This document shows, piece by piece, positions 1,343 to 49,560 of a stretch of 64,000 bases of DNA. The position numbers and the translations under genes are program-made. The notes beneath the pieces are model-generated. The model saw only the letters and a list, made by a program, of their open reading frames with translations, was not told the origin of the DNA and made no database searches. The stretch's first letter is position 1, and the number at the start of each line of letters is the position of its first letter. The stretch comes from a virus, in IMG/VR virus record IMGVR_UViG_3300045944_000276, positions 2,514 to 66,513 of that record; one strand, given 5' to 3'.

Positions 1343-1645
1343 TTATTGTGTGATTTTTCCTGCGCTCGATTTCGCATAAAAATACGTTTCATGTGGAACC
1401 TCGCCGCGCAGGCAGTCGAGCACCCTGAGTAGTCGGCGGGCGAGTAGGTCGCGCGGTTCCGCGTTGCGGCCGGAGCGAAGGGCGGCCAGGGCCGACCACG
1501 AAGTTCCGACGGCGCGCGCGAGTTCGGAAGCCCGCAGGCCGCGGGCGTCGATCTCGTTAAGGATCGCCGGCCAGTCGATAGGCGCGGACACACTGGCCGC
1601 TTCAGCGGCGCGTGTTTCGATTTCGCGTTTTCTGTCCGGGTTCAT
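1343..1645 (-). CDS. XRE-type HTH protein coupled to terL
   Basis: GLRASELARAVGTSWSALAALRSGRNAEP fits an HTH pattern. ATGA overlap with terL. Homologue at 34784-35083. Confidence 0.75.
   Translation of the reverse strand: MNPDRKREIETRAAEAASVSAPIDWPAILNEIDARGLRASELARAVGTSWSALAALRSGRNAEPRDLLARRLLRVLDCLRGEVPHETYFYAKSSAGKITQ
1385..1400. promoter_or_regulatory. parS-like palindrome CGTTTCATGTGGAACC
   Basis: One mismatch to the core GTTNCACGTGNAAC. Same position as 34838-34853 in the other copy. Confidence 0.5.
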
Positions 1646-3162
1646 GCGATCAGGGCGGCGACATCGAACGCTGGCGCCGTAACCATGAAGACACCTACAG
1701 CCATCACCGCGGCCACCAGCGGGTCAATACGCTGTGTCGTGTGCGACTTGTCGAGCTTCCTGTTTCCCGCCGCATCGCGCACCACGATCGCGCTGGCGGC
1801 CGCCATGTTGAGCAGCGGATGGGCGCCGTGGCGCAGCTTCTGCTGCAAGAGGAGGGTCTCGAAGTGCTCCACGCGCGGGCTCATCGACTGGTAGCCCTGG
1901 CCGACTTCCAACCAGGTGTTGACTACGAAGCCGTTACGCTCGGCGGCCGACTTCGCCTCGACGATGCGCCAGCGGTCGAACGCGCAAACATCGACCCGCA
2001 CGCCCAGGTCGTCCAGGCGGATGCGCAGCCACTGGAAGAGGAAATCGTAGTCGATCGTGGCGCCCGGCACTGCGACCAGGTGTCCGCTCGCGACCCAGGC
2101 GGTGTACGGTGCCCGGTCCCGGAGCTCGCGTTCGGGCAACCCGCGCTCGGGCGTGAAGACGAACGGCAGGAGGTGGACGCTGCCGGCGTCGTCCTGGGCG
2201 GCCAGCACGCAGGCGGTCAGGTCGTTCCGCTGCGAGAGGTCGAGCCCGGCAGCCACCGTGCGCCCGTCCGCGAAGATCGCCTGATCAGGAGCGGCGCCGC
2301 ACGCCTTCCACACGCCGGGGGCCAGCCACTGGTGCTCGAGCGCCACGCGCTGGTTCAACACGTGGTTGCGGTACGCCGCCTCGGCGCCAGGCAGGCGCTT
2401 CGCCTCCGCGGCCTGGCGCAGCATCTCGCCCTGGTTCATGAACTCGCCGAAGTGCGGATTGGCCGCCTTGATCGCCTTCAGCCCGAATGGGTCCAGGTCA
2501 GCGGCCGCCGTGTAGAGCTCGATCTTCCTCTCCCGCTCCTCCCCGCGCAGCGCGTCGTCGATCAGCACCGACAGGAGATCGGCATCGCCCGGCGCCTGCG
2601 TGCTGATGACGATCGAGAGCGGCCGCGGCTGCTTCGCCTGCGCCGTCTCGAGCGCCTCGTAGAGCTCCGAGCGCGGTCCGCGCACCCGCCCGAGCTCGTC
2701 GTGCACCACGAAGGCCGGCGAGAGCCCGTGCGCCGTCGAGGCGTCCGCGGAGAGCGCCCGGTAGAGCGTCCCGAGTTTCGGGCACGCCAGCTGTTTCGCG
2801 GTCTCGCGCACGACCACCACTGCGGCCAGGTCCACCGACAGGCGCACGCACTTGGCCGCATACCCGAAGAGGATCGCCGCCTGGTCACGGGACTGCGCCG
2901 CCGAGAAGAGCTGGCTATTGGGCAGCGCTTCGTGACCGCACAGGTGCAGGAGCAGCAGGAACGCCGCGAACGCTGTCTTGGCGTTGCCCCGTCCCATCGA
3001 CAGGATGAAGGTCCGCGTCGGCGTGTCGTAGATCCGGCGCAGCCACCGCTTCTGGTGCGCCGTCAGCTTCACCGGCCGGCCGACGAGCCGGCCCTCCGGT
3101 ATCCGGCAGTAGTCCTCGATCCAGGCGGCGTTGCGCTGCCCGCGCGTCACTCGCTTGCCCAC
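1642..3162 (-). CDS. terL: Terminase large subunit
   Basis: Walker A-like GRGNAKT, Walker B VVHDELG, coupling motif ISTQ, nuclease motifs GLDLS and RIDPLVA. Confidence 0.95.
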   Translation of the reverse strand: MGKRVTRGQRNAAWIEDYCRIPEGRLVGRPVKLTAHQKRWLRRIYDTPTRTFILSMGRGNAKTAFAAFLLLLHLCGHEALPNSQLFSAAQSRDQAAILFGYAAKCVRLSVDLAAVVVVRETAKQLACPKLGTLYRALSADASTAHGLSPAFVVHDELGRVRGPRSELYEALETAQAKQPRPLSIVISTQAPGDADLLSVLIDDALRGEERERKIELYTAAADLDPFGLKAIKAANPHFGEFMNQGEMLRQAAEAKRLPGAEAAYRNHVLNQRVALEHQWLAPGVWKACGAAPDQAIFADGRTVAAGLDLSQRNDLTACVLAAQDDAGSVHLLPFVFTPERGLPERELRDRAPYTAWVASGHLVAVPGATIDYDFLFQWLRIRLDDLGVRVDVCAFDRWRIVEAKSAAERNGFVVNTWLEVGQGYQSMSPRVEHFETLLLQQKLRHGAHPLLNMAAASAIVVRDAAGNRKLDKSHTTQRIDPLVAAVMAVGVFMVTAPAFDVAALIA

Positions 3163-3575
3163 GGCAGGCGCCTGGGTTCCTGCTCGACGCTCGTCGCCGA
3201 GGCCTCGGCGCGATAAAGCGTCACCTGCGCGAGCCGCATCGAGTGCGCCAGCCTTTGCACCGCCCTGGTCTCGGCGAGCAGCAGCCGGCGCAGGCGCTCG
3301 TAGCGCGCGAGCCCTTCGTCGCCCTCCAGGGATGTCGGGTCAACCCGGTCCAACTGCGCGGCGATCACGTCCGCTCCCACGACGTGCCGGCAGTAATTCG
3401 CGAGCAACGGCTCGTGTTCGGGCCCGAACCATTCCGCAGGCCGGGAATTGACCGTGCGCAGCCACACCGCGCGCTCGGCCCCGTGTATCAGGCTAGCCGG
3501 CGGCCCGAGGCGGGTGACGCCCCGAATATCGGTCGCGACGACCGCCAGCGAAGATTTACGACCCCTCTGCTTCAT
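3147..3575 (-). CDS. terS: Terminase small subunit
   Basis: Directly upstream of terL. MKQRGRKS...PP...AVW...LLANYC resembles the P27 family. Confidence 0.8.
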   Translation of the reverse strand: MKQRGRKSSLAVVATDIRGVTRLGPPASLIHGAERAVWLRTVNSRPAEWFGPEHEPLLANYCRHVVGADVIAAQLDRVDPTSLEGDEGLARYERLRRLLLAETRAVQRLAHSMRLAQVTLYRAEASATSVEQEPRRLPWASE

Positions 3576-3581
3576 ACCGAT

Positions 3582-4040
3582 TTAGCGAAGGAACCTATCG
3601 GCCGCCGGTGCGCCGGCTCGCTTCGAGTCGTTCGCTTCCCCCCCGCCGGACTCGGTCGCACTCCCCCGTCGATTTGGCTTCGACCGCCGCCGCTTTCTCA
3701 GATCCGCCAGCATTTCCGTGATGAATTCGTCGCGGCCACGGATCTCCGTCGATAGATTCTCAATCACATAGCCTTCTGCAGTCAGAATGCCGATCCTTTG
3801 AGTCGAGCACGGCGCATACGCAAGAATCGGCCTCGCTATCCCACATCCGGCATTGAGGTCGTAGTGATCGAACAACCATCCGACGATAGGCACCTCATCT
3901 TCATGATAGTCGTCGTCATCGAGTAGTGTCACCACAAGCGCAGTATGACCAGTGCATGCGGGGATCATATGCTTCGCCGTCAAGCGCTCGACCTCGGCCT
4001 CACGCAGCTGACGCTCGGTAAGCTCTCTCAAGCGGGTCAT
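3582..4040 (-). CDS. Hypothetical phage protein
   Basis: ORF preceded by a GGAG RBS, between the HNH gene and terS. Confidence 0.55.
   Translation of the reverse strand: MTRLRELTERQLREAEVERLTAKHMIPACTGHTALVVTLLDDDDYHEDEVPIVGWLFDHYDLNAGCGIARPILAYAPCSTQRIGILTAEGYVIENLSTEIRGRDEFITEMLADLRKRRRSKPNRRGSATESGGGEANDSKRAGAPAADRFLR
3599..3665. other. Candidate cos/packaging site, copy 1
   Basis: 63 of 67 bp identical to 37069-37135, with unrelated flanks. Lies between the HNH gene and terS. Contains a gccgg-tgcg-ccggc dyad and a C7 run. Confidence 0.65.
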
Positions 4041-4044
4041 GGCG

Positions 4045-4338
4045 TTATCTCCAACCTGACGGCAGCCCATCGATCGCGACCGGCATGCGCTCGACATGGT
4101 TGCCGCCTTTCGCACTGTGCCGCTTCGCATCGCAGTCTATGCACAACGTGCGCAGGTTCGACAGCACGAGCGCCAGGTCAGGCCGCTTGCGCCTCGGCTC
4201 GACGTGATCAACCCGGCTTTCGCCCTTGCCGCGCACGCTGCGTTCGCAGATCGTGCATTTCCAGTGATCACGCTTGAGCGCCTTGTAGCGCAGCTCCCGC
4301 CAGGCGTTCGAGGAATAGAACGGGTCCGTGCCCTTCAT
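4045..4338 (-). CDS. Terminase-associated HNH endonuclease (HK97 gp74-like)
   Basis: FYSSNAWRELR...CTIC...VDHVEP...SNLRTLCIDCD, located upstream of terS. Confidence 0.9.
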   Translation of the reverse strand: MKGTDPFYSSNAWRELRYKALKRDHWKCTICERSVRGKGESRVDHVEPRRKRPDLALVLSNLRTLCIDCDAKRHSAKGGNHVERMPVAIDGLPSGWR

Positions 4339-4466
4339 GATCGTCCTTCCCACACGTCGTTGAGCAGCGCCAATTCTGCGTTCGTCGGCAGTCTGCCCGC
4401 AATTCTGCGAAGTTTCCACGACAGCCACAGGTAGCGGATGTGGCGGATGAGCGGCCAGCGCTTCAC
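4335..4466 (-). CDS. Conserved small protein (MKRWPLIRHIRYLW)
   Basis: Nearly identical to 38051-38182. Confidence 0.75.
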   Translation of the reverse strand: MKRWPLIRHIRYLWLSWKLRRIAGRLPTNAELALLNDVWEGRS

Positions 4467-4582
4467 GGCTTCTCCTTCCTTCTTCTCTGGTAATACTTGA
4501 AGTGAAGGAAGCCGTGCGACATACCGCACGATCTGTAGCGAACGTGCTTGCCGCAATTACTGCATCGCGTCCGGTATCTCAC
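4463..4582 (-). CDS. Small CxxC protein
   Basis: GTGA overlaps at both ends. Contains CSNC. Confidence 0.45.
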   Translation of the reverse strand: MRYRTRCSNCGKHVRYRSCGMSHGFLHFKYYQRRRKEKP

Positions 4583-4610
4583 GCGAGCACCCACGCCAGC
4601 ACGTCGGGCT

Positions 4611-4796
4611 TCATCGCTTCCACCACGACGGCAGCACCACGTCAAACCAGTGCGTCCACTGGCGCGTCCTCGTGCCGCACGTTACCGCGCAACTCCACGT
4701 CTTATAGACCTTGCGCTTATGGATGCGGAAACTCGGCATCTGCTGGCGGATGAAGCCGATAAACACACGTCCAGGTAGGCGCATGATCCGGATCAT
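4611..4796 (-). CDS. Hypothetical basic protein
   Basis: ATGA overlaps at both ends. Confidence 0.45.
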   Translation of the reverse strand: MIRIMRLPGRVFIGFIRQQMPSFRIHKRKVYKTWSCAVTCGTRTRQWTHWFDVVLPSWWKR

Positions 4797-4888
4797 GCCA
4801 GCACCCACGCCAGCACGAAGGCAGAGACCATCAGCACGATCGCCGCGATGACGATGAAGGGCAGGTTGTCCTCCTCGTCGTGTTTCAT
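4793..4888 (-). CDS. Single-TM micro-protein (31 aa)
   Basis: [31 protein letters not shown] with a GGAGG RBS. Homologue at 38893-38991. Confidence 0.75.
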   Translation of the reverse strand: MKHDEEDNLPFIVIAAIVLMVSAFVLAWVLA

Positions 4889-4970
4889 GCGGCCACCTCC
4901 GGACCACCTGACGGACCACCTATGCATGACGAGGTGGTCCGTAAATTCACGTTTCGATTCATGGCTTGAA

Positions 4971-5136
4971 CCCACCTAACCCAACTAACCCTCCTTTTCT
5001 CTATGTGTTCTCCCATATATCTATAACCTCTTTATCCTTTAGGTGGGTTAGGTGGGTTAGGTGGGTAAAGTAGTTGGTTTAAAACCGGAAATGTGCGGAC
5101 CACCTACTAACCCACCTGGATGGAGGTGGGTTAGGT
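4971..5136. repeat. Iteron cluster, probable replication origin 1
   Basis: Several AACCCACCT/AGGTGGGTT copies in both orientations around an AT-rich stretch, downstream of the VirE gene. Confidence 0.65.
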
Positions 5137-5404
5137 TCGGTGACTCGCGCCGAGTGTATTCCGCCACCCATTTCACCGCCTGGCTGACCGCCTGCTCATA
5201 GGCAAGTTCGCGCGCCCGGACATTCGGCGCACCGCGAGCCTGCGCCGTCACCATCGCCTGCCACGCCCGCCAGATCCTCACTTCCAGGCCCGGCACGTTC
5301 TTGCCCAACAACTTCCAGCACCGTTTGCACAGGCCATGCCACCGCTGCGAGTGCCCGCAGGGCTCGAGAGTTATCTCGCGCTCTAGCTCGTCTCGTTCGT
5401 CCAT
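5057..5404 (-). CDS. Hypothetical Cys-containing protein
   Basis: MDERDELE...PCGH...CKRC. Follows the VirE gene. Confidence 0.5.
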   Translation of the reverse strand: MDERDELEREITLEPCGHSQRWHGLCKRCWKLLGKNVPGLEVRIWRAWQAMVTAQARGAPNVRARELAYEQAVSQAVKWVAEYTRRESPNLTHLHPGGLVGGPHISGFKPTTLPT

Positions 5405-6744
5405 AGCCGCAGATACCTGCCCTTCTCCCACTGACGGGACTTTCTCCAGCCGTGCGCCGTCAGCACATCGGCCACCCGCATCTGTGCCTGCTTGTCGAAG
5501 TGCTTCACCTCCAGCCCTAGATCCCCCAGCACATCCGGTATCGACACCCGTGTCCTGAGCGAGACGAACGACAGGATCGCGTCTTCCCACGGATCGGCAT
5601 GGCGCCGGTCCTCCTGCGCCTGGCGCGTGGCCTCCTCCGGCATCTGCCACCACGGCTCGCCTCGCCGGAAACGCGCCACCGCCTCCGCGAACAACTGCTC
5701 GCGCTGCTCGCGCAGGAGCTCCAGCCGGATCTCTCCGCAGCGCACCGGCCAGAAACGCCGCGCCCCGGTCGCATCGCGCAGGTAGCCGTTGTCGTTGGTG
5801 GTGCCGCAGAACACGGTAAAGCGCGGGTGATCCTGCGAGCGCGCCCCGTAGGGCGAGCGGTAGCGATCGACCCGGCACGTCACCACCTGTTTCACGCGCG
5901 CGGTGTCGGCACGTCCGAAGGCGTCCATCTCGGTGATCTCGACCAGGAGCTTCCCCTGCAACGACAGAAAAAAATCCTTGTCGCGCAGGCTTTCGTGCGC
6001 CTCCGAATACCAATCACCCCCGACCAGGCGCAGCGCGCTCGACTTGCCGATGCCCTGCGCGCCCTCGAGAATCAGCATGTTGTCCACCTGGCAGCCTGGC
6101 TGGAGCGCCCGAGCGGCGAGCGACAACCAGAAATTGCGCGACGCGCAGCGCGTGTACTCATCATCGGCCGAGCCCATTACGTCGGTCAGGAAGTGCTCTA
6201 GGCGCTCGATGCCGTCGTGATGGAGCGATTCGAGCCAGTTGCGGCATTCGTTCTGGGTGTTCTTGCGCGCGACCAGGTTGACCGCCCGGCGCACGATGTC
6301 TACCCCCATCTTCGGCATCCCGCAGTCGCGCTGCACCCATACCGCGGCCTCGATGTCGTCGGTGTCGAGCCACTGCTCGGGAACGGCCGCGCCGTTCAGG
6401 CGATAGACGCGGCCATGAAATTCATCGAACCAGATCCGCGTTTTCCAGTCCGGGTGGTTCTGCAGCAACTGGCAGGCGTTTCGCTCGTTGCAGAACGGGA
6501 CTTGCCTGTCGTTCAATTCAAGGCCGCATTCGCGCCACATCGACAGGCGTTCCACTATCGACTCCACCATTGCCGTGGCCGGCGTGGGAAAGAGCGCGTT
6601 CACTCGACGTTTCTTGCCCCTCGAGGCCTTGCGCTTGGCGAGTACGTTCGCCGCATGATTGACCAGGCTCCCATCGGTGCCGTCGCCGTAGAAATCGGCA
6701 GAGGCCCCCGGGTCCGACGACCCGGGCTTCTGGGACTTGCTCAT
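5383..6744 (-). CDS. VirE/VapE-family ATPase (primase-associated helicase)
   Basis: PGCQVDNMLILEGAQGIGKSS Walker A. DRYRSPYG and GTTN...YLRDATGARRFWPV signatures. Confidence 0.9.
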   Translation of the reverse strand: MSKSQKPGSSDPGASADFYGDGTDGSLVNHAANVLAKRKASRGKKRRVNALFPTPATAMVESIVERLSMWRECGLELNDRQVPFCNERNACQLLQNHPDWKTRIWFDEFHGRVYRLNGAAVPEQWLDTDDIEAAVWVQRDCGMPKMGVDIVRRAVNLVARKNTQNECRNWLESLHHDGIERLEHFLTDVMGSADDEYTRCASRNFWLSLAARALQPGCQVDNMLILEGAQGIGKSSALRLVGGDWYSEAHESLRDKDFFLSLQGKLLVEITEMDAFGRADTARVKQVVTCRVDRYRSPYGARSQDHPRFTVFCGTTNDNGYLRDATGARRFWPVRCGEIRLELLREQREQLFAEAVARFRRGEPWWQMPEEATRQAQEDRRHADPWEDAILSFVSLRTRVSIPDVLGDLGLEVKHFDKQAQMRVADVLTAHGWRKSRQWEKGRYLRLWTNETS

Positions 6745-7190
6745 TAACTCCCCAATATCGACAAGGCATCTTCAATACTTCGCGCGACACCGGCGACGCC
6801 GTGATTGGCCCTGCACTTGGCGAGCATGAATTCCTGCTCGTCGGTGAGCCGTCCCTTTTCCGCCTTGCACTCGATCATCAGGATGCGCCCGTCCGTCAAC
6901 TGCCCCAGGAGGTCAGGGCAGCCGGGGAAACCGAAGCGCACGAACCGCCCGTCCGGGGTCTTGTAGGCGCCCGAATTGATTCTCGCGAACCAGACCACCT
7001 TCGGGTGATAGCGCAGCGTCTTCATGACCGCGTTGAGCACGCCCTGCTCCAAGTGTTTGTTCGTTCGTTTAGGCCCAGGATCGTGGGCACCGATCGCCGT
7101 CGGATCACCCCAGAGGAGGCCTGACTGCCACAACTCCCGGTTACTGATCTTCACGCCTTCAGGTCCTCGAGCAGCACCACGACCCCACAC
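6744..7190 (-). CDS. VRR-NUC domain nuclease
   Basis: GCPDLLG...IECKAEKGRLTDEQ PD-(D/E)xK motif. Start is uncertain. Confidence 0.85.
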   Translation of the reverse strand: MWGRGAARGPEGVKISNRELWQSGLLWGDPTAIGAHDPGPKRTNKHLEQGVLNAVMKTLRYHPKVVWFARINSGAYKTPDGRFVRFGFPGCPDLLGQLTDGRILMIECKAEKGRLTDEQEFMLAKCRANHGVAGVARSIEDALSILGS

Positions 7191-7393
7191 GTCTTACACG
7201 CCACCTCCTGCGCGCACGTCACGTCCTGGAACTCACTTCCATCGCAATGTGGGCAGTGCGGGACATTGATCCCGAGCGCGACATACTGATACGAGCCCTT
7301 CTCATCCCAATGCGTGACGAGGCGCTCGGGGACGGTGACGGGGATGGGCTCCTCGGTGCCGTACAGACGCACGGTGACGGGCTCCTCGGTCAT
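7151..7393 (-). CDS. Small zinc-ribbon protein
   Basis: CPHC...CKTC. ATGA overlap with the upstream gene. Confidence 0.55.
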   Translation of the reverse strand: MTEEPVTVRLYGTEEPIPVTVPERLVTHWDEKGSYQYVALGINVPHCPHCDGSEFQDVTCAQEVACKTCGVVVLLEDLKA

Positions 7394-7578
7394 GCGGCCC
7401 TCCTCCGCGCCTGCCGGCACGCGGTGCACCGGCTCTGGCCGTTGGCATCGACCCAGGTGTTGTACGCCCTGGCGTGACCGCAACCGAAGGTTTCGATCAC
7501 GATCACGCGGACCGGGCGCTTGCCGGCCAGGCGCTCGAGGAGTTCGCGGTGGAGCTGCTCGCGGGTCGTGCGGTTCAT
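7390..7578 (-). CDS. Conserved small Cys protein
   Basis: Near-identical homologue at 41774-41974. Confidence 0.75.
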   Translation of the reverse strand: MNRTTREQLHRELLERLAGKRPVRVIVIETFGCGHARAYNTWVDANGQSRCTACRQARRRAA

Positions 7579-7605
7579 CGCCTAGCCTTCCGTGCCCAGG
7601 GCTTG

Positions 7606-7848
7606 CTAGGGATGCCCGACCAGGTCGCCGGCGGTGAGGGCGACCGCTTTCGCGTGCGCGAGCTTTAGAAGCGTCCAGTGATATTTCGCCGGGATGAGCC
7701 CCGCGCCACCCTTGCTTATCTGCCATTTGCTGACGGCAGAGGGGTCGAGGCTGAGCTCGCGCGCGAGGGCGCGCACGCCGCCGAACTTGGCGATGACCGA
7801 GGCGGCCGGCTCGCACCGCTGGCCGGTCATTTTTCCCGTCTGATTCAT
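7606..7848 (-). CDS. Cro/YdaS-like regulator
   Basis: VIAKFGGVRALARELSLDPSAVSKW...IP. Divergent from the repressor gene. Confidence 0.85.
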   Translation of the reverse strand: MNQTGKMTGQRCEPAASVIAKFGGVRALARELSLDPSAVSKWQISKGGAGLIPAKYHWTLLKLAHAKAVALTAGDLVGHP

Positions 7849-7933
7849 GCAGTTAGTGCCATATAATGGCTCTGTTGACCGATTCGCTACGAAAAGGCAC
7901 AATGGTATGAATCGTAGAGTTAAGCGCAATTAT

Positions 7934-7950
7934 ATTGAGAAAACCTCAAC
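7934..7950. promoter_or_regulatory. Operator ATTGAG-N5-CTCAAC
   Basis: Dyad between cro and cI. Matches GTTGAG-N5-CTCAAT at 8670-8686. Confidence 0.6.
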
Positions 7951-7999
7951 GCGCAACCGCCGAATACGGGGTGGAGGAAAAAAGAAGGGAAACCGCCGT

Positions 8000-8599
8000 A
8001 TGAGCAGAGGACGATTCGATAGATTATGGTTTCAGCAGCGCTTTCGCGAATGTGGCCTCCTGACGCAACGCAGCGTCGCGAAGCTACTCGGTTGCGATCC
8101 CGCGTCGGTCTCCATGCTGTACCAGGGCAAGCGCGCGCTGCGCATCGACGAGGCGCGCATCATCTCGGCCCAGATCGGGAGAGGCGTGCAGGAAGTGCTC
8201 AAGCGCGCGGGCATCGACATCGCGCCACAGGTGAAACTCATTGGACGGGTCGAGAGCGACGGCGCTGTGACCCTGCTCGCGAAGGGCGACGAGGCCGAGG
8301 TCGACGCGCCGCGCGACCTGCCGCAAGGAGCCTATGCGCTCCAGGTGCGCACGCATTTCTCCCGCCTCGCCGCCTTCGATCGCTGGATCTTGTTCGTCTC
8401 GGGCTTGCGCGAGGAGCCGGCGCAACTGCTGAATCGGCTCGCGCTGATCGGCGAGCACGACGGCAAGATGTGGCTCGGCTATCTGACCGAAGGCTACAAG
8501 AGCGGCACCGTAAGCATCCAGCTCGCCGACAATATCCGCCAGAATGTGACGGCGATCTGGGCCATGCGCGTGCTCTCTGCAGACGGCCCTCGGAGTTAG
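8000..8599 (+). CDS. CI-like repressor (HTH plus degenerate S24-like domain)
   Basis: LTQRSVAKLLGCDPASVSMLYQGKR HTH, followed by VKLIGRV...GAYALQVR. Confidence 0.8.
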   Translation: MSRGRFDRLWFQQRFRECGLLTQRSVAKLLGCDPASVSMLYQGKRALRIDEARIISAQIGRGVQEVLKRAGIDIAPQVKLIGRVESDGAVTLLAKGDEAEVDAPRDLPQGAYALQVRTHFSRLAAFDRWILFVSGLREEPAQLLNRLALIGEHDGKMWLGYLTEGYKSGTVSIQLADNIRQNVTAIWAMRVLSADGPRS

Positions 8600-8669
8600 G
8601 CAACGAATGACCCCCTTTCCCCTGGAGGCCCGCGGCGGGTCCGTGACGCTTCCCTTTTTTCTGCATTGC

Positions 8670-8706
8670 GTTGAGCATGTCTCAATGACGTTGGCGTTAT
8701 CACAAT
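8670..8706. promoter_or_regulatory. Early-operon operator region
   Basis: GTTGAGCATGTCTCAAT plus a degenerate copy GTTGGCGTTATCACAAT, after a hairpin and T-run. Confidence 0.55.
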
Positions 8707-8732
8707 CTCCCGATAATCCTCGGAGGTGCCCC

Positions 8733-8990
8733 ATGACCCGCAACCGCAGCCTGGTGGAGAAACTCAAGGTCCGAGAACGCCGGCGCCCGGCTAAGAGCGA
8801 CACCCCCAGGGTGGACAACTTCGTGGCGCAGTTGCCGGCGCTGGTCCTCGACCCTGCCGATCTCGCCGACCACAACGCCTTAGTGCGCACAACGGTACGG
8901 ATACGCGAGCAAATGATCTGGTGGGCCGAATTCGCCCGCCAGCTCGAGCGCGAGCTCATGCAGTCAACGCCCAGGGAGTGGAAGAAGTGA
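8733..8990 (+). CDS. Early hypothetical protein (uninterrupted form)
   Basis: GGAGG RBS. Homologous to the split pair 45403-45939 and 45923-46126. Confidence 0.75.
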   Translation: MTRNRSLVEKLKVRERRRPAKSDTPRVDNFVAQLPALVLDPADLADHNALVRTTVRIREQMIWWAEFARQLERELMQSTPREWKK

Positions 8991-9232
8991 GCGCAAAGCG
9001 AGGGAGCTACGACTCCCGCTGCCACGACCTCGCGCTCTGCTTCCTCGACGACGAGGACTTGCCTACGGAGATCTTGGTTGATGCCGCGAACGTCCTGGCG
9101 CAGCACATTCAGAGAGCCATAGAAGACTTCCTGGAATTCGACCTGGCCGAGATTCGCAAGGATCTCGAGGACCGCGACGAGCATCTGAAGGAAGAGGCCG
9201 CGCTGCTGAAGCGGCAGGAGCGTCGGCCGTGA
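8987..9232 (+). CDS. Hypothetical acidic protein
   Basis: GTGA overlaps within the early operon. Confidence 0.6.
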   Translation: MSAKRGSYDSRCHDLALCFLDDEDLPTEILVDAANVLAQHIQRAIEDFLEFDLAEIRKDLEDRDEHLKEEAALLKRQERRP

Positions 9233-9333
9233 CCTGGCTAGAGGTCGCCCTCCTCGTCGTCGTGTTCGCTCTGCTCAGGGCCTGCTACGTCGCCACGCGC
9301 GAGATCGACGCCGAGAGGAAGGGGAAGTCATGA
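9229..9333 (+). CDS. Single-TM micro-protein
   Basis: MTWLEVALLVVVFALLRACY. AGGAG RBS and overlaps at both ends. Confidence 0.55.
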   Translation: MTWLEVALLVVVFALLRACYVATREIDAERKGKS

Positions 9334-9542
9334 CAGACATTCCGGCATTTCCGAGACCGTTTGGCGGACCCACGGGGCATGAGGGCATGAGCCTGCGCGA
9401 TTACTTCGCGGCAGCGGCGCTAACCGGTTTCTGCGGAAACACGGATCTGGATACCAGGGAAGAGAAGGCTGCAGCATTTGCAAACGACGCTTATGCCTTC
9501 GCCGACGCCATGCTGGCCGAGCGGTTGAAGACGAAGAAATGA
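9330..9542 (+). CDS. Phage protein with GMSLRDYFAA motif
   Basis: PAFP...GMSLRDYFAA...AYAFADAMLAER is a common phage motif. Confidence 0.8.
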   Translation: MTDIPAFPRPFGGPTGHEGMSLRDYFAAAALTGFCGNTDLDTREEKAAAFANDAYAFADAMLAERLKTKK

Positions 9543-9676
9543 CCCTCCGCATCGCGCTTTACTTGGCGTTCGTCCTGGCTGCGTTCGCCATCGCCGGCGC
9601 GGTCGACCTGGCCGAGGAGGAAAGGCTGTCGTTCCCCGGCTATCTGGCCGAGCGCGTCGAGCTCGCCACACACTGA
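9539..9676 (+). CDS. Single-TM small protein
   Basis: AGAVDLAEEERLS is shared with 45254-45406. Confidence 0.65.
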   Translation: MTLRIALYLAFVLAAFAIAGAVDLAEEERLSFPGYLAERVELATH

Positions 9677-9689
9677 ATAGGAGACCCTC

Positions 9690-10556
9690 ATGGCCGCAGC
9701 AGACAGGAACTTCCCGGCGTTGCTCGAGCAGCAGAAGGCGCAGATCGCACTCGCGCTGCCCAAGCACCTCAACGCCGATCGCATGACGCGCATCGCCCTC
9801 ACCTGCTACCGCATGACGCCCCAGCTCGCCCAGTGCGACCCTACATCCGTCTTCGCCGCGGTCATCCAGGCCGCGCAGCTCGGGCTCGAGCCGGGACTGA
9901 ACGGCCGCTGCTACTTGATTCCCTACGGCAACGTCTGCCAGTTCGTGCCCGGCTGGAAGGGTCTGGTGGAGCTCGCCAACCGCTCGGGGCGCGCGTCAGT
10001 GTGGACCGGGGTCATCTACGAGGGGCAGAAATTCGAGTACCAGCAGGGCGACTCGCCCATGCTCAAGGTGACCGAGATCACGCGGGAGGAAGACCCCACG
10101 CGCATCGCCTACGCCTACGCCGTCGGGCGCGTCAAAGGCTCGGACTGGCCGGTCATCGAGCTCTGGTCGGCCGGGCGCATCAGGAAGCACCGCGACCGCT
10201 TCAACAAGATCGGCAAGAAGCACTACAGCTTCGAGAACTGGGAGATGTACGCGCGCAAGGTGCCGCTCCTGCAGGTGCTGAAGTACCTGCCGGCGACACC
10301 GGAGCTCGAGGCCGCGATCATCCTGCACGATAGCGCCGAAGTGGGCACCCAGCGCCTCACCATCCAGGACGCGATCGACGGGACGTTCGTGCCGGTGGCG
10401 CCCGAGGACGTGGTGAACGAACACGACGGGCTCAGGGCGGCGAAGTCGGTGAAGGAGCTGGCGCAGATCTTCCAGGGCCTCACCCCGGAGGAGAAGAAGA
10501 CCTACAAGACTTTCTACGACGTGCGCCACGCCGAGTTTACCGAGGCGGCGGCGTGA
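9690..10556 (+). CDS. recT: RecT-family single-strand annealing protein
   Basis: ALPKHLNADRMTRIA...AAQLGLEP...CYLIPYG...GWKGLVELA...EMYARK...LKYLP. Confidence 0.93.
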   Translation: MAAADRNFPALLEQQKAQIALALPKHLNADRMTRIALTCYRMTPQLAQCDPTSVFAAVIQAAQLGLEPGLNGRCYLIPYGNVCQFVPGWKGLVELANRSGRASVWTGVIYEGQKFEYQQGDSPMLKVTEITREEDPTRIAYAYAVGRVKGSDWPVIELWSAGRIRKHRDRFNKIGKKHYSFENWEMYARKVPLLQVLKYLPATPELEAAIILHDSAEVGTQRLTIQDAIDGTFVPVAPEDVVNEHDGLRAAKSVKELAQIFQGLTPEEKKTYKTFYDVRHAEFTEAAA

Positions 10557-11188
10557 GCATCGAGCTGGCCCAGGGCAGCCCCGAGTGGTTCGTCGCGCGC
10601 TGCGGCTACTGTACCGCGAGCCGCTTCGCCGACGTGCTGGCGACAATCAGGAGCGGCGAGGCGGCGACCCGGAGGAACTACCGCGCCGAGGTCGTGTGCG
10701 AGCGTTTGACCGGCGTGCCGGCCGAGCACTTCCAGTCAGCCGAGATGCGCTTCGGCACGGAACAGGAACCGTATGCGAGGATCGCCTACGAAAGCACGAC
10801 CGGCAACATGGTCTCGCAGTGCGGGTTCCTGAAGCACCCGCAGCTCGCGGCCGGCGCCTCGCCCGACGGATTGATCGGGTCGGACGGCGGCCTCGAGATC
10901 AAGGTGCCCAATACCGCGACCCACCTTGACGCGCTTCTCAAAGGCATGGACCGCGGCCACCTGCCACAGATCCAGGGCGGCCTGTGGATAACCGGGCGCC
11001 GGTGGTGGGACTTCGTCTCCTACGACCCGCGCATGCCCGAGCGCTTCCAGCTCTACGTGCAGCGGGTCGAGCGCGACCAGGCCTACATCGACAACCTGGA
11101 GCGCGAGGTACGCAAGTTTCTGGCGGAAGTCGAGGACGTCATCGGGCAGCTTGAGCGCCTGGGGGACGTGACCAGGGCGGCCGCATAG
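10553..11188 (+). CDS. Lambda exonuclease/YqaJ family nuclease
   Basis: QGSPEWFVAR...TAS, GASPDGL, LEIKVP, QIQG, WWDFVSYDPR. Confidence 0.93.
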   Translation: MSIELAQGSPEWFVARCGYCTASRFADVLATIRSGEAATRRNYRAEVVCERLTGVPAEHFQSAEMRFGTEQEPYARIAYESTTGNMVSQCGFLKHPQLAAGASPDGLIGSDGGLEIKVPNTATHLDALLKGMDRGHLPQIQGGLWITGRRWWDFVSYDPRMPERFQLYVQRVERDQAYIDNLEREVRKFLAEVEDVIGQLERLGDVTRAAA

Positions 11189-11204
11189 GAGAAGGGACAA
11201 CGCA

Positions 11205-11462
11205 ATGACGAACGAGAGCTCACTGCTCACGCCTTCCGAGCTCGTGGAACTGACCGGCAAGCGCCGCTACAAGGCGCAGCAGCGCGTGCTTTCGAAGATG
11301 GGTGTGCGCCATGCCGTACGCCCGGACGGCTCGCCGGTTGTCTCGCGAGCCCTCGTCGCCGCCATGCTGGCGCGCTTTAGCGAGACGCCGCCCGAGCCCG
11401 CGAGCGCCGAGCCTGTACTGAACCTCGGGGCGCTGGCCGGGAAGCGGTCCCGCGGCGGCTGA
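11205..11462 (+). CDS. DUF4224-like putative excisionase
   Basis: LTPSELVELTG...Q...L...G...RPDGSPVV, directly before the integrase. Confidence 0.8.
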   Translation: MTNESSLLTPSELVELTGKRRYKAQQRVLSKMGVRHAVRPDGSPVVSRALVAAMLARFSETPPEPASAEPVLNLGALAGKRSRGG

Positions 11463-11485
11463 GTTATTTCTAACGAAAGGGCAAC

Positions 11486-12514: not shown

Positions 12515-12532
12515 ATGACACTGGAATAGGAA

Positions 12533-12738: not shown

Positions 12739-12759
12739 GTTTCCGGTGCCGGCCGCGAC

Positions 12760-13011: not shown

Positions 13012-13072
13012 CCCTACCCCACAGCCCCCCCCCGGCCGGCGCGGCTTTTAAAGGCTCGGGGACACTGCACCT

Positions 13073-14136: not shown

Positions 14137-14245
14137 AGGACTTCAGGGGAGCCCACAGACGTCCGACTCGATCCTCAACGCTCGACCCTAAGCGTGGAAA
14201 CTCCCTGTGAGTCGTGCTTCGCAATGCACGGACAGGAGAACCGAC

Positions 14246-34640: not shown

Positions 34641-34783
34641 TTGGGGCGGGGCCTTCCACTCCCCTTACCCGGTGCCCGCCGAGGCGTCCTGGGCGCTTCA
34701 GGCGAGGCGCAGGGGCATCGCTGATATGTCCTGAACATGCGCGGGATTGTGCGCGCGAGTCCGGGCGCCGCGCCACCCAAGAA

Positions 34784-35083
34784 TTATTGGGTGTGCGGCT
34801 CACTCGCCGGGCCAGAAGCAGAAACCACAGAAAAATAGGGTTCACGTGGAACACTGCACAGCCAGTCGCGCACGGCCAGGATGCGCCGGGCGGAACGATC
34901 GCGCGGTTCCTGCGTGCGGCCGCAGCGGATCGCGGCGATGGCCTGCTCGGAGACTCCCACGGCGCGCGCGAGCTCGGCCATCGTTAGACCGAGGGAGTCT
35001 ATTTCATCGACGACCGCCGGCCAGTCGACAGCATCGCAGGAGAGCGCCGCCCTGGCTGCACCCAGTTCGATTTCGCGTGGCAT
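34784..35083 (-). CDS. XRE-type HTH protein after terL
   Basis: GLTMAELARAVGVSEQAIAAIRCGRTQEP. GGAGG RBS. Confidence 0.78.
   Translation of the reverse strand: MPREIELGAARAALSCDAVDWPAVVDEIDSLGLTMAELARAVGVSEQAIAAIRCGRTQEPRDRSARRILAVRDWLCSVPREPYFSVVSASGPASEPHTQ
34838..34853. promoter_or_regulatory. parS-like palindrome (TGTTCCACGTGAACCC on the minus strand)
   Basis: One mismatch to the core. Confidence 0.55.
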
Positions 35084-35095: not shown

Positions 35096-36610
35096 TCAGG
35101 CAATCAGTGCACCAACGTCGAACGCAGGCGCCGTCACCATGAAGACACCTACAGCCATCACCGCGGCGACCAGCGGGTCGATCCGCTGCGTCGTGTGCGA
35201 CTTGTCGAGCTTCCTGTTTCCCGCCGCATCGCGCACCACGATCGCGCTGGCGGCCGCCATGTTGAGCAGCGGATGGGCGCCGTGGCGGATGCGCCCCTGC
35301 AGGAGGAGCGTCTCGAAGTGCTCCACGCGCGGACTCATCGACTGGTAGCCCTGGCCGACCTCGGACCAGGTGCTAACGACGAAGCCGTTACGCTCGGCGG
35401 CGCTCTTCGCCTCGACGATGCGCCAGCGGTCGAACGCGCACACATCGACCCGTACGCCCATGTCGTCCAGGCGGATCCTCAGCCACTGGAAGAGGAAGTC
35501 GTAGTCGATCGTGGCACCTGGCACCGCGATCAGGTGCCCGCTTCCGACCCAGGCGGTGTATGGTGCCCGGTCCCGGAGCTCGCGTTCGGGCAACCCGCGC
35601 TCGGGCGTGAAGACGAACGGCAGGAGGTGCACGCTGCCGGCGTCGTCCTGGGCGGCCAGCACGCACGCGGTAAGGTCGTTACGTTGCGAGAGGTCGAGCC
35701 CGGCGGCCACCGTGCGCCCGTCCGCGAAGATCGCCTGATCAGGAGCGGCGCCGCATGCCTTCCACACCGCCGGGGCGAGCCACTGGTGCTCAAGCGCCAC
35801 GCGCTGGTTGAGGACGTGGTTGCGGTACGCCGCCTCGGCGCCAGGCAGGCGCTTCGCCTCAGCCGCCTGGCGCAGCATCTCGCCTTGGTTCATGAACGCG
35901 CCGAAATGCGGATTGGCGGCCTTGATCGCCTTCACCCCGAACGGGTCCGTATCGACCGGCGCCGTGTAGAGCTCGATCTTGCGCTCCCGCTCTTCCCCGC
36001 GCAGCGCGTCGTCGATCAGCACCGACAGAAGATCGGCATCGCCCGGCGCCTGCGTGCTGATGATGATCGACAGCGGCTCCGGCTGCTTCGCCTGCGCCGT
36101 CTCGAGCGCCTCGTAGAGCTCGGAGCGCGGCCCGCGCACTCGCCCGAGCTCGTCGTGCACCACGAAGGCCGGCGACAGCCCGTGCGCCGTCGAGGCGTCC
36201 GCCGACAACGCCCGGTACAGCGTCCCGAGCTCGGGACAGGCGAGCTGCTTGGCCGTATCGCGGATCACGACGCTCCCGTCCAGGTCCGGAGAGAGCCGCA
36301 CGCACTTCGCCGCGTAGCCGAATAGAATCCCCGCCTGGTCGCGCGACTGCGCCGCTGAGAACAACTGGCTGTTCCGCCGCGCTTCGTGACCGCACAGGTG
36401 CAGGAGCAGCAGGAACGCCGCAAATGCCGTCTTCGCGTTGCCGCGGCCCATCGACAGGATGAAGGTCCGCGTCGGCGTGTCGTAGATCCGGCGCAGCCAG
36501 CGCTTCTGGTGCGCCGTCAGCTTGACCGGCTGCCCGACGAGCCTACCCTCCGGTATCCGACAGTAAGTCTCGATCCACCCGGCATTGCGCTGCCCGCGCG
36601 TTATTCCCAC
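35096..36610 (-). CDS. terL: Terminase large subunit
   Basis: Near-identical to 1642-3162. Confidence 0.95.
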   Translation of the reverse strand: MGITRGQRNAGWIETYCRIPEGRLVGQPVKLTAHQKRWLRRIYDTPTRTFILSMGRGNAKTAFAAFLLLLHLCGHEARRNSQLFSAAQSRDQAGILFGYAAKCVRLSPDLDGSVVIRDTAKQLACPELGTLYRALSADASTAHGLSPAFVVHDELGRVRGPRSELYEALETAQAKQPEPLSIIISTQAPGDADLLSVLIDDALRGEERERKIELYTAPVDTDPFGVKAIKAANPHFGAFMNQGEMLRQAAEAKRLPGAEAAYRNHVLNQRVALEHQWLAPAVWKACGAAPDQAIFADGRTVAAGLDLSQRNDLTACVLAAQDDAGSVHLLPFVFTPERGLPERELRDRAPYTAWVGSGHLIAVPGATIDYDFLFQWLRIRLDDMGVRVDVCAFDRWRIVEAKSAAERNGFVVSTWSEVGQGYQSMSPRVEHFETLLLQGRIRHGAHPLLNMAAASAIVVRDAAGNRKLDKSHTTQRIDPLVAAVMAVGVFMVTAPAFDVGALIA

Positions 36611-38182: not shown

Positions 38183-38896
38183 GTGCCGTAGTCCAGCGTA
38201 GATTGCGCGTATACGTCGCGCACGGGTTCAGGGAATAGCTTCTGCTGCCGGTAGGCGTTCTCGATCCGCTCGCAGGCGATGTCGAAATAAGGCCCATAGA
38301 TCTCGATGCCGACAAAGGGCTGTCCGGCTTGCGTAGCAGCTACGCCTGCGCCTCCGGTCCCCATGTAGGGGTCAAGCCATACCTCGTATGGTTCCAAGGC
38401 CGCCTGCGTCATGCACCACGCCATTAGGGCTATTGGCTTCTGTGTGGGATGGGTCCGAGCCTCGCCGCGCTCTGACGCCTTGAGCATGCCGTTCCAGTAG
38501 TGGCGGAAGATGCGCGCTTGGCCTGGAAGGTTTCGTCCATGCGAGTTCACAATCCGCAAACGACAGGGATGACTCGGCCTCCCGCTTGTCCCAGACGAGC
38601 CACTTATCGACGTCCGGTAGCTTGCTGCCGTAGTGGTTCGCGCCCCACAGAATTACCTTGGGAAAGTCCAGCCACGGGGAAGGGTCGAAGGGCTTCTCGT
38701 CACCGATGACTTTATGGCCAGCAAAGGCAGTTTTATACTTGCCGCCACCAATGCCTTTCACGTCTTGACCGTGGTGCGAAAACGCAATCCCATACGGCGG
38801 GTCGGTAATCACTGCATCGACCTTGCCGAGCGTCGGCAGAATCTCCAGACAGTCGCCCAGGTATAACGTCGCCTCGCCGATGCGCTCGACTCTCAC
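38179..38896 (-). pseudogene. N6/N4 DNA methyltransferase (beta class) split by a one-base frameshift
   Basis: LYLGDCLE...TDPPYG in one frame and HPTQKP...DPYMGTGG...GIE in another. The break is near 38531-38533. Confidence 0.8.
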
Positions 38897-38991
38897 GCGA
38901 GCACCCACGCCAGCACGAACGCGGAGACGATGACCACGATCGCCGCCAGGACGATGAATGGCGTGTTGTCGTCCTCGTCGTCGTGCTTCAT
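38893..38991 (-). CDS. Single-TM micro-protein
   Basis: Homologue of 4793-4888. Confidence 0.75.
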
Positions 38992-39035
38992 GTTGCGTAC
39001 TCTTTGAGCAATTCGCTGCCTCTTAGCCAACACAT

Positions 39036-47095: not shown

Positions 47096-47392
47096 ATGGC
47101 AATCTGGAAAGACGCAGAAGCAGCCGACAAGGCTCTGGCGGTTCTGCAGACCTTCGTCCAGCGCGGCGCCCCGGCGCCCGAAGCGGTGACGCACGTGCAC
47201 CTGAACCCGGTACGCTACGTGCTGGTCCACCTGGCCGCGGCCGTCACCGGATACACGGAAGCGGCAATACGCCGCAAGATCCACGAGGGGGTGTGGCGCG
47301 AGGGCCGCGAATGGGTGCGCGCGCCCGATGAGAGAATTCTGATAGACCTGGAAGGGGTCACTAAATGGGTAGTCGAAGAACGGTCAAGGTAG
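47096..47392 (+). CDS. Excisionase-like protein
   Basis: AA.VTGYTEAAIRRKI.EGVWREG.EW.RAPD.RILID. Confidence 0.85.
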   Translation: MAIWKDAEAADKALAVLQTFVQRGAPAPEAVTHVHLNPVRYVLVHLAAAVTGYTEAAIRRKIHEGVWREGREWVRAPDERILIDLEGVTKWVVEERSR

Positions 47393-48633
47393 ATGTCCGT
47401 GCAAAAAGCATTCGCCTGATCTTTACGTGGGAGGGGGTTCAACGCTTCGAGTCCTTGCCAGGCGGCATCACCCCGCCCGAGCAGCGCGCGGCGCGTCGAG
47501 TGGCTGCGCAGTTGCTGCGCGCGCTCGAGTCGGGCACGTTTTCCTATCACGAGTTCTTCCCCGATTCGCCGAACGCAGGTGCAAGCGGCGAGCGCACGGT
47601 GCGCCACTACGGGGAGCTCTGGCACGCCTCCAAGGGCGCGCTCGCGGAAGCCACGCGCTACCAGTACCAGGGGGCGCTCGATTTCTGGTATGCGCAGCCG
47701 CTTGATCCGGGGCGGACGAGATTTCTCCTTGGAGATGCGGAGGTCACGCGCGTGCGCCACAGCCAGCTGGCCGCGCTCGTGGGGCGTCATCCATGGCCGT
47801 CAAACCGCATGATGAACAATCGACTGATACCGTTACGGGGGCTTTTCGAAATGGCATCCAAGGACTGCGGAGTATCCGATCCGTCCGATGGCATCAAGGC
47901 CGGGCGCGTGCAGAAGGCGCCGCCCGATCCGTTGGACGGCGAGGAGCGCGAGATCATCCTGGCCGATCTGGCCGAGCACTATCAGCCAAACATCGTGAAC
48001 TACTTCGAGTTCGCCTTCCTGACGGGGCTGCGCCCGGAGGAAGAGGTGGCGCTTCTGTGGCGCGACTACGAGGCGCGTCGCGGCTCGGTGCGCGTTGAGC
48101 GCGCGCGGAGCTTCCGGGGGCGGGTCAAGCCCACGAAGACCTACGAGGTCCGGGATCTCGAGTTGACCACCAGGGCGCGCGCCGTGCTCGAGCGCCAGCG
48201 CGTGCTGACCGGGAAGAGCGCCCACGGCCACATCTTCGAGAACCCGCAGACGGGGAACCCCTGGTATGACGGCCGGAGCCAGCGCGAGGAGTACTGGGAT
48301 CGCGTCTTCGAGCGGGTCGGAATCCGCGCGCGCGTGCCCTACCAGACGCGCCACACGTACGCGACGCTCGCGCTGATGGGCGGGGTGAATCCCGCCTACA
48401 TCGCGCGCCAGCTCGGGCACAAGAACACCAAGATGCTGTACGAGACCTACGCCAAGTGGATCGACGGCGCCGATCGCGGGCGCGAGCTGGCGAAACTGGA
48501 GGACGTGCACGGAGCCGTACCGGTGCGTGAGTACGTGCCGGTGCCGGCCGGGCGGCCGGCCAAGCCTGGCGCGAAGCGCTCAGATGCGAAGTTGAAACTC
48601 GTCCGCGGCGCGTTGAAGGGACCGAAGGATTGA
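47365..48633 (+). CDS. int: Tyrosine integrase 2
   Basis: SIRL.F.W arm-binding N-terminus. TGLRPEE, YQTRHTYAT, QLGH...Y motifs. Confidence 0.93.
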   Translation: MGSRRTVKVDVRAKSIRLIFTWEGVQRFESLPGGITPPEQRAARRVAAQLLRALESGTFSYHEFFPDSPNAGASGERTVRHYGELWHASKGALAEATRYQYQGALDFWYAQPLDPGRTRFLLGDAEVTRVRHSQLAALVGRHPWPSNRMMNNRLIPLRGLFEMASKDCGVSDPSDGIKAGRVQKAPPDPLDGEEREIILADLAEHYQPNIVNYFEFAFLTGLRPEEEVALLWRDYEARRGSVRVERARSFRGRVKPTKTYEVRDLELTTRARAVLERQRVLTGKSAHGHIFENPQTGNPWYDGRSQREEYWDRVFERVGIRARVPYQTRHTYATLALMGGVNPAYIARQLGHKNTKMLYETYAKWIDGADRGRELAKLEDVHGAVPVREYVPVPAGRPAKPGAKRSDAKLKLVRGALKGPKD

Positions 48634-49025: not shown

Positions 49026-49043
49026 CGCGCGGCGCGCTGAAGG

Positions 49044-49298
49044 ATGAGACCCACTCGCAAGCTGACCGACAGCCGCTGCCAGTGCTCGGGCTGTAACGAG
49101 TATTTCAACTCCGATACCGCCTTCGACATGCACCGCACTGGTGAGTTTGGGAAAGACCGGCGTTGCATGACACCGGCTGAGATGTTGAAAGCCGGGATGG
49201 CCAAGAACGCGGACGATTGGTGGATCACCGAACCCTACGACGGATGGGCCAGGGAGCCGCGGGAGGACGCGCAGGACGCGTTGGAAGGCAACGGTTGA
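49044..49298 (+). CDS. FDxHR-type zinc-binding phage protein
   Basis: Homologue of 12760-13011. Confidence 0.8.
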   Translation: MRPTRKLTDSRCQCSGCNEYFNSDTAFDMHRTGEFGKDRRCMTPAEMLKAGMAKNADDWWITEPYDGWAREPREDAQDALEGNG

Positions 49299-49318
49299 GG
49301 GGTAGGTCTACCCGCACC

Positions 49319-49344
49319 GCCCGGACGCGCTCCGGGCTTTTTTT
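49319..49344 (+). terminator. Intrinsic terminator
   Basis: gcccgga-cgcgc-tccgggc followed by T7. Confidence 0.75.
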
Positions 49345-49352
49345 CGCGGGCC

Positions 49353-49534
49353 ATTATGCCAGTATTATGCCAGACGCTCGTAAGTCATTGATTTTATGGT
49401 AGGCGCGATTGGAATCGAATCATTAAATCAAGGACTTAGCGATATTTCCGGGTTATCGCTTCATAGATAAACAGGGATGTTCGACTACCCCCGATAACCG
49501 GGTTTTTTTGGCCATTATGCCGGCCATTATGCCA
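49353..49534. other. attP of integrase 2 (intact) with a tRNA 3'-end core
   Basis: The core 49397-49419 reads TTCGATTCCAATCGCGCCTACCA on the minus strand (T-loop to CCA, resembling proteobacterial tRNA-Val GAC). ATTATGCC pairs flank it on both sides. IHF boxes at 49381 and 49426. Confidence 0.8.
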
Positions 49535-49544
49535 GAGGGCCGAT

Positions 49545-49560
49545 CGTTCCACGTGTAACC
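49545..49560. promoter_or_regulatory. parS-like palindrome CGTTCCACGTGTAACC
   Basis: Exact GTTNCACGTGNAAC match. Intergenic, next to attP. Confidence 0.65.

Follow-up and report, generated by a model that had tools for sequence, protein, structure and literature searches.

Introduction

Bacillus phage phi29 carries five parS sites, and the host protein Spo0J is involved in segregation of the phage genome into the prespore and in its entrapment in the spore, as set out in the available text of PMC2731898. This small protein-primed podophage, described as lytic and growing on a spore former, has no ParB of its own and several copies of the host-type chromosomal parS on its genome, on which Spo0J acts for the purpose of spore entrapment. 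The statement on parS and Spo0J is said to come from Meijer et al. 2005. Here we describe four parS-like palindromes in a DNA stretch of 64,000 bases, hereafter the window, which covers bases 2514-66513 of the 66,513-base IMG/VR virus record IMGVR_UViG_3300045944_000276 (G000) and holds two related siphophage genomes end to end, phage 2 (15524-49561) and phage 1 (49562-64000 plus 1-15513). As in phi29, host-consensus parS with imperfect outer bases is found on phages without their own ParB. Unlike phi29, these are integrase-bearing HK97-like siphophages whose host is probably a non-sporulating Gram-negative bacterium; their sites are fewer and less perfect (14 of 16 bases at best), and the phages are known here from sequence, whereas Spo0J does act on phi29 DNA.

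Three further systems are similar in part. Plasmid-prophages (P1, N15 and the extrachromosomal mycobacteriophages) also have a centromere on the phage genome; they encode their own ParA and ParB, take no integrase route and use a private parS unlike the chromosomal consensus. In plasmid RK2, where KorB has dispersed operators, parS-like palindromes are likewise scattered along a mobile element, some of them at operon borders, but that element encodes its own ParB-family protein and the record of the window does not. The chromosomal parS of ParABS systems (TGTTNCACGTGAAACA type; Burkholderiales, Pseudomonas) has the same 14-bp core, the phage site at 34051 being a common host variant, and the arms of the phage sites match heptamers bound by Pseudomonas aeruginosa ParB; the phage sites differ in being unclustered, away from an origin, without adjacent parAB and mostly without the outer T/A.

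Full-text literature searches turned up no description of orphan, host-type parS in phages of the integrase type that grow on Gram-negative bacteria. An earlier note on this DNA was not aware of the arrangement in lambdoid phages; phage-borne host parS as such is known from phi29, so far the one phage for which action of the host protein has been shown. What would be new here is centromere mimicry of the phi29 type in integrase-type Gram-negative phages.

Four parS-like sites and their excess over chance

The window was searched with the parS core GTTNCACGTGNAAC, which fixes 12 bases in 14 bp. This pattern search recovered the four sites listed by the earlier note, two of them exact and two with a single mismatch:

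34051-34064, no strand assigned: parS-like site with the exact core GTTCCACGTGAAAC, flanks C..C; phage 2, inside the protease-capsid fusion gene
49546-49559, no strand assigned: parS-like site GTTCCACGTGTAAC, which fits the pattern without a mismatch, between flanks C..C; phage 1, intergenic
1386-1399, minus strand: parS-like site with one mismatch, GTTTCATGTGGAAC (minus strand GTTCCACATGAAAC); phage 1, in an open reading frame (ORF) with a helix-turn-helix (HTH) domain
34839-34852, minus strand: parS-like site with one mismatch, GGTTCACGTGGAAC (minus strand GTTCCACGTGAACC); phage 2, in the corresponding HTH ORF

The 16-mers around the two exact cores begin at 34050 and 49545. Each phage genome has two sites, at spacings from 0.8 to ~19 kb.

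In 100 dinucleotide shuffles of the window no exact match appeared (mean 0.00, against 2 observed), and the four sites found with at most one mismatch compare with a shuffle mean of 0.07 and a maximum of 1, none of the shuffles reaching 4. Allowing two mismatches added just two more (six sites in all; shuffle mean 1.56). The claim that far less than one exact match is expected by chance was therefore sound. Ranked by its matches in the window, the parS core came first of 180 palindromes that equal it in half-site composition (2 exact plus 2 one-mismatch sites; pattern means 0.017 and 0.12). When codons were shuffled synonymously within genes (72 ORFs), a kind of background that the note had proposed for related phage genomes, none of 3000 shuffles reached the three in-ORF sites (means 0.022 exact and 0.40 one-mismatch). 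Moreover, CACGTG is scarce in the window: it occurs 12 times, three of them within the parS-like sites, whereas hexamers of equal composition average 47. The motif excess is thus confirmed as more than chance, with the homologous sites 1386 and 34839 counting as a single evolutionary event.

How the window was chosen has to be considered as well, as across many scanned windows about one with two exact matches is expected by chance. By our own arithmetic, independent bases give ~0.002 exact matches per window, and ~250,000 windows would yield roughly one with two. The two exact cores and the homologous near-match might then be unrelated accidents picked out by the scan. We consider this unlikely: rare codons maintain the 1386/34839 element in both of its diverged copies and no codon shuffle reaches the observed count, the 34051 site required several amino-acid-changing substitutions, all of them towards the motif (see below), the closest relatives add a further independent near-match, and CACGTG itself is scarce.

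Contexts of the sites and constraint on the DNA

The sites lie in or beside the following features:

34784..35083, minus strand: 99-amino-acid ORF of phage 2, located between the genes for the large terminase and the capsid; its HTH domain is 434-repressor-like (Pfam HTH_3, E=1.2e-4)
1343-1645: phage 1 homologue of the HTH ORF
34774..34793, no strand assigned: inverted repeat of phage 2, CACCCAA-N6-TTGGGTG, overlapping the HTH ORF at its stop codon
1333-1350: inverted repeat CACAAT-N6-ATTGTG, phage 1
32608..34524, minus strand: fusion of prohead protease (Peptidase_S78) and major capsid protein (Phage_capsid), 638 amino acids, phage 2; contains site 34051
49562..49759, minus strand: lipoprotein-like 65-amino-acid ORF, last late gene of phage 1
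49298..49561, no strand assigned: attP-like non-coding region 3' of the phage 2 integrase module

Sites 1386 and 34839 occupy homologous positions near the 3' end of the small HTH ORF, where the reading frame directly after the HTH domain gives V-P-H-E and V-P-R-E, respectively. That they sit at the same place in otherwise diverged DNA, as the note had it for its positions 1385 and 34838, proved correct: 19 of 22 bases are identical between the sites, in a region (4-3665 versus 33448-37135) of 77.6% identity. Since each copy departs from GTTCCACGTGAAAC at one, different, base, the ancestral site was probably perfect. The codons concerned are sparingly used in the window. Among 20 confident genes, the share within the codons of the respective residue is 7.5% for GTT (Val), 5.4% for CCA (Pro), 6.4% for CGT (Arg), 22.6% for GAA (Glu), 21.8% for TAT (Tyr) and 7.9% for TTT (Phe). 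Both HTH genes, although diverged, retain the series GTT CCA C.T GAA ... TAT TTT, and all five residues shared at the sites have identical A/T-ending codons, compared to 29 of 47 elsewhere in the HTH gene. As these rare codons are kept in both copies and none of the 3000 codon shuffles attains the count, the HTH-linked element is a constrained DNA element.

A search for homologues of the HTH protein returned a single one, P0002 (71% identity), with S replacing the P of the phage 2 V-P-R-E. In P0002, known here from the protein alone, codons keeping the motif in V-S-R-E would read GTTTCACGTGAA. DNA homologues of the HTH gene amounted to one weak metagenome locus among the matches listed, with a generic pattern, and in the viral scan to 19 distant loci only.

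The proximity of an HTH gene raises the question of whether the motifs bind a protein other than host ParB, either the adjacent 434-like protein, for which they would be operators, or another phage or host factor. In that case the resemblance to parS would be a coincidence, or host parS would be a target of the binder too. By profile, the HTH domain resembles the DNA-binding domain of the 434 repressor (E=2e-5 to 2e-4), HTH proteins of this type bind palindromes of 14-18 bp, as established for the 434 repressor, and this Cro/CI-type gene ends at the 1386/34839 site. In addition, the conserved element extends beyond the palindrome into TATTTTT, and three of the four sites share the flanks C..C, which are not those of parS. 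Against this, the motif does not vary between the two HTH copies, although their recognition helices do (VSEQAIAA versus TSWSALAA). A better candidate for the operator is a separate inverted repeat, which overlaps the stop codon 35-45 bases from the parS-like site and has arms that are unequal in the two phages and yet complementary. Site 49546 lies ~19 kb (an estimate) around the phage 1 genome from the HTH gene, and the relative L004 (record G363) has no HTH insertion and yet has a parS-like site elsewhere. For an arbitrary operator to hit 12 of 12 fixed parS bases twice would also be very unlikely. A binder other than ParB is, in our judgement, improbable.

The narrower version, in which the sites are operators of the adjacent HTH protein, had been the fallback of the earlier note and is disfavoured by the unequal helices and the covarying repeat; the site does not covary with the recognition helix. 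Promoter scans of 33900-35200 and 49200-49800 revealed no promoter-like site at any parS-like site. Terminator scans gave none in 33900-35200 and two terminator-like hairpins in 49200-49800, neither of them at site 49546, and at E<=1 no Rfam family matched 33800-35200.

As for the HTH gene itself, it forms, with ~180 bases, an insertion that is absent from the relatives L004, L006 and L007. The stop-codon inverted repeat, of which the window holds one copy of each version and no more, is likely the cognate operator, or a hairpin, of this 434-like insertion. After the HTH gene come ~140 G+C-rich non-coding bases (about 34645-34784 and 1190-1343) that seem, by eye, better conserved between the two phages than the gene, and beyond them a small basic ORF, which L006 and L007 share.

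Site 34051 lies in the codons for G-F-T-W-N, directly past the Peptidase_S78 domain (residues 39-147) of the 638-amino-acid fusion protein. At the equivalent position, phage 1 (G-F-S-L-D) and the relative L004 (G-I-T-L-S-D) are without the site, which makes it a derived gain in the capsid linker, obtained by several amino-acid-changing substitutions, all towards the motif.

In phage 1, site 49546 lies 2 bases past the stop codon of the final late gene and adjoins the attP-like arm repeats; the equivalent 10-base gap of phage 2 (15514-15523) contains no parS-like site. The attP-like region has four GGCATAATGGCC-type arm repeats, two pairs flanking a core (49397-49422) that resembles the 3' end of tRNA-Val(GAC). 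This core matched 180 of 301 sampled genomes at E<=0.01, the sample being drawn from the order Burkholderiales only and including one unpublished genome. The intact look of attP suggests that the DNA was assembled from an excised or replicating form. Contigs of four soil-metagenome runs span 49061-51391 or more with 0 differences, so that the junction between attP and the tail genes is real in those assemblies.

Taken together, these contexts point to one full core per genome (34051 in phage 2, 49546 in phage 1), along with one decayed copy of an older, HTH-linked site.

Comparison with chromosomal parS and ParB specificity

For comparison we used five Burkholderiales-type genomes with related prophages (Bordetella, Achromobacter, Caballeronia, Janthinobacterium and Nitrosospira; G001-G005; 29.1 Mb). 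They contain 24 exact cores, 23 of which fall in one cluster of 0.4-4.2 kb per genome, the remaining one lying 47 kb off its cluster. The earlier description of the motif as chromosomal-type parS agrees with these clusters. The host core variants follow GTT[T/C]CACGTG[A/G]AAC and include the phage sequence at 34051 exactly; this site is the one of the four that fits that consensus of Burkholderiales-type genomes. The outer bases of the 23 clustered host sites are T in 21 and A in 21. All ten of the genomes with related prophages contain the core motif. These data support that the motif is of the chromosomal parS type of plausible hosts, as far as sequences can tell. No origin-proximal cluster beside parAB was found: the sites are on phage DNA, and the 66,513-base record is without parAB.

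The binding preferences of a ParB protein offer a second comparison. Six heptamers are enriched at least 4-fold at the chromatin immunoprecipitation (ChIP) summits of P. aeruginosa ParB, according to the available text of bioRxiv 10.1101/280743: GTTCCAC, GTTTCAC, GTTCCAT, GCTCCAC, GATCCAC as well as GTTTCAT. Eight of the ten arms of the four window sites and of the site in G363 are among the six heptamers given there, including both arms of site 1386 (GTTTCAT and GTTCCAC). As far as the same text goes, P. aeruginosa ParB binds more weakly at parS sites with one or two mismatches (bioRxiv 10.1101/280743); sites 1386 and 34839 have one mismatch each to the core.

Search for phage-encoded partition genes

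A palindrome of this kind might also belong to a private ParB/KorB-type system of the phages, the ParB gene of which had been missed. A six-frame search of the whole record (the window plus 2513 bases) gave 0 matches to ParB_N (PF02195), AAA_31 (PF13614) or CbiA (PF01656). Likewise, ParB/ParA-type Pfam domains were detected in none of 66 ORFs and, even at E<=1, in none of the 16 unexplained ORFs, in line with the earlier remark that parA and a canonical parB are absent. The record spans both phage genomes except for ~0.5 kb, which lies within a portal gene. A missed private system is close to refuted and very improbable indeed.

Relatives and other phages with parS-like sites

The closest relatives are the records G363 (two genomes) and G364, with a large terminase protein 88% identical. 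Both carry GATCCACGTGAAAC, a one-mismatch site, immediately past the stop codon that ends a small hydrophobic ORF, itself conserved (792 and 28678 in G363, 26459 in G364). This site is upstream of the HNH-terminase module, is homologous across the relatives and is kept in two diverged copies; at the same spot, the window phages have no GATCCACGTGAAAC-type site. In a wider set of 86 GTDB loci related by terminase (~0.96 Mb) we counted 2 exact and 6 one-mismatch sites, which ranks first of 180 patterns (means 0.05 and 1.9). Intergenic examples among these loci are L069, L088 and L054, with no ParB adjoining. Integrase relatives were also considered as a comparison for the attP-side site and were set aside, as the 4 loci obtained, at merely 37-39% identity, are too distant.

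Unrelated phages also carry the motif. In the bin G006, three of five exact cores are on phage contigs, one of them in a related prophage and two, as perfect 16-mers, on contig C66 (L380/L381). C66 is an unrelated 38.7-kb phage contig (Terminase_3, portal, Rz, RecT, SSB) without ParB_N. Its 16-mers, at 10180 and 31481, are both intergenic and at opposite ends of the late operon, one between a stop codon and the start of the small terminase gene and the other after the lysis gene. G006 has a single strong ParB_N match, 13 kb from its chromosomal parS pair.

Across IMG/VR, the perfect 16-mer was found in at least 126 stretches, many of them multi-copy, versus 59 single matches for the reversed control. 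ParB_N is encoded in two of 50 records with the perfect 16-mer, and in one of the 11 with a completeness of 90% or more. The multi-copy records include several of phi29-like type (Phi29_MCP, Gp16, Phi29 SSB), with 2-4 perfect 16-mers each, and the scan thus recovers known biology. A further case is G361 (L153), with 68% G+C and a Mu-F-like head gene, which has three perfect TGTTTCACGTGAAACA within 1.1 kb (21145-22269) of head-gene coding sequence; no ParB_N was found in G361.

Proposed role of the sites

We propose, as a possibility that falls a little short of probable, that the four motifs are orphan host-type parS sites which load host ParB on phage DNA, with turnover of sites between lineages. 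The phages would have evolved and kept short palindromes that the chromosomal ParB of the host, probably a Burkholderiales-like soil bacterium, binds, loading as a clamp with cytidine triphosphate (CTP). Site positions would turn over while the presence of sites is kept, since each genome appears to have one full core and one weakened older copy. Unintegrated phage DNA would then most likely be treated as a centromere-bearing molecule and be positioned or segregated by host ParA/ParB, possibly with SMC loaded, in parallel with the use of Spo0J by phi29. Alternatively, ParB might spread over the late genes, or host ParB might be titrated. The earlier note had likewise suggested positioning or segregation of the unintegrated circle by host ParB/SMC, or damping of the late promoter and the attP region by ParB spreading. 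We infer ParB binding, and all consequences of it, from the motif and its excess, the constraint on the DNA, the absence of par genes on the phages and the agreement with the parS of candidate hosts. The gain of site 34051, the GATCCACGTGAAAC site of the closest relatives, the arms matching ParB-bound heptamers, the perfect 16-mers on other ParB-less phage DNA and the phi29 precedent also speak for the proposal.

Several results weigh against this proposal, and some of them are also what accidental matches would produce. The latter concern four points. First, the sister phages share a site position at the HTH gene alone, where both copies are imperfect. Second, the outer T..A of the 16-mer is present at one of eight positions in the phage sites, against 42 of 46 in the host clusters. 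Functional parS sites of Myxococcus xanthus and P. aeruginosa vary at position 16, according to the available text of PMC7022226, so the missing outer T/A weakens the parS case without excluding it. Third, in a replicate on 79 IMG/VR loci related by terminase (0.79 Mb), 0 exact and 4 one-mismatch sites were found, rank 19 of 180. The scan of relatives proposed by the earlier note was therefore positive in the GTDB set and negative in this one, and because the GTDB excess was not replicated, family-wide enrichment is weak and sporadic. Fourth, half-sites are not enriched in the window (GTTCCAC 7 versus a permutation mean of 8.4; GTTTCAC 5 versus 5.4).

The other adverse results bear on ParB itself and on the hosts. 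Site 49546 has all 12 fixed bases and, at the second N, a T seen in none of the 23 host sites, and the arm GGTTCAC of site 34839 is outside the six ParB-bound heptamers. The conserved TATTTTT beside 1386/34839 is not accounted for by parS. An exact core is missing from all five related prophages in G001-G005. Finally, G006 is an 8.8-Mb metagenome bin, whose phage contigs may not belong to the cell that has its ParB.

A broader hypothesis, on the doubtful side, is that temperate tailed phages of ParABS hosts repeatedly evolve orphan host centromeres, often bordering the packaging or late block, which would load ParB-CTP clamps and perhaps SMC. Such sites would be a general interface setting genome location, inheritance before integration or late-gene silencing, and the window phages, G363/G364, C66 of G006 and G361 would be examples of it beyond phi29.

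If host ParB loads on these sites, centromere mimicry would reach beyond phi29 and sporulation, as a strategy that integrase-type phages use more widely in Gram-negative soil bacteria. It would bear on the persistence of unintegrated phage circles in dividing cells (carrier states, pseudolysogeny), on the perturbation of chromosome folding by prophages through ectopic parS, and on how ParB ChIP peaks and ectopic parS matches in genomes are read. If ParB does not bind, the finding shrinks to a conserved cis element beside a small phage repressor-like gene.

Organization of the record

Other genes of the two phages used in this work are:

47365..48633, plus strand: tyrosine integrase with arm-binding domain, phage 2 (Pfam scan)
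11486-12514: integrase, phage 1 (Pfam scan)
35096..36610, minus strand: large terminase, phage 2 (query for the relatives)
1642-3162: large terminase, phage 1

Both phages are of the integrase type, with one tyrosine integrase each. Corresponding segments of phage 1 and phage 2 are spaced 33.4-34.2 kb apart and have ~72-90% identity. The first and last bases of the record map ~0.5 kb apart within the portal gene of the other copy, from which it follows that the record equals two genome lengths minus ~0.5 kb. It is probably a double build, in which the assembler went twice round two co-occurring variants, a true tandem being the alternative. The relative record G363 (56,556 bases) shows the same double build.

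The late genes are on the minus strand, in the order HNH nuclease, small terminase (PHROG 12559), large terminase and the HTH ORF of 99-100 amino acids, followed by ~260 bases with the small basic ORF, the fusion of prohead protease and major capsid protein, the portal and the tail genes. The phage 1 counterpart of the fusion (1-1086, minus strand) likewise has Peptidase_S78 and Phage_capsid in a single open frame. A DNA methyltransferase gene of phage 2 with a DPPY motif (38179-39022, minus strand) is split over two frames, apparently by a frameshift, and has no ParB domain. Between the phage 1 integrase module and the phage 2 tail end, a cargo region of lower G+C content (13073-15513) encodes a P63C-domain protein, a 166-amino-acid ORF and a 284-amino-acid PHROG 3989 protein with a weak BRCT match. 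An HNH_3 homing-endonuclease-like gene lies within the head genes of phage 2 (31359-31784, minus strand).

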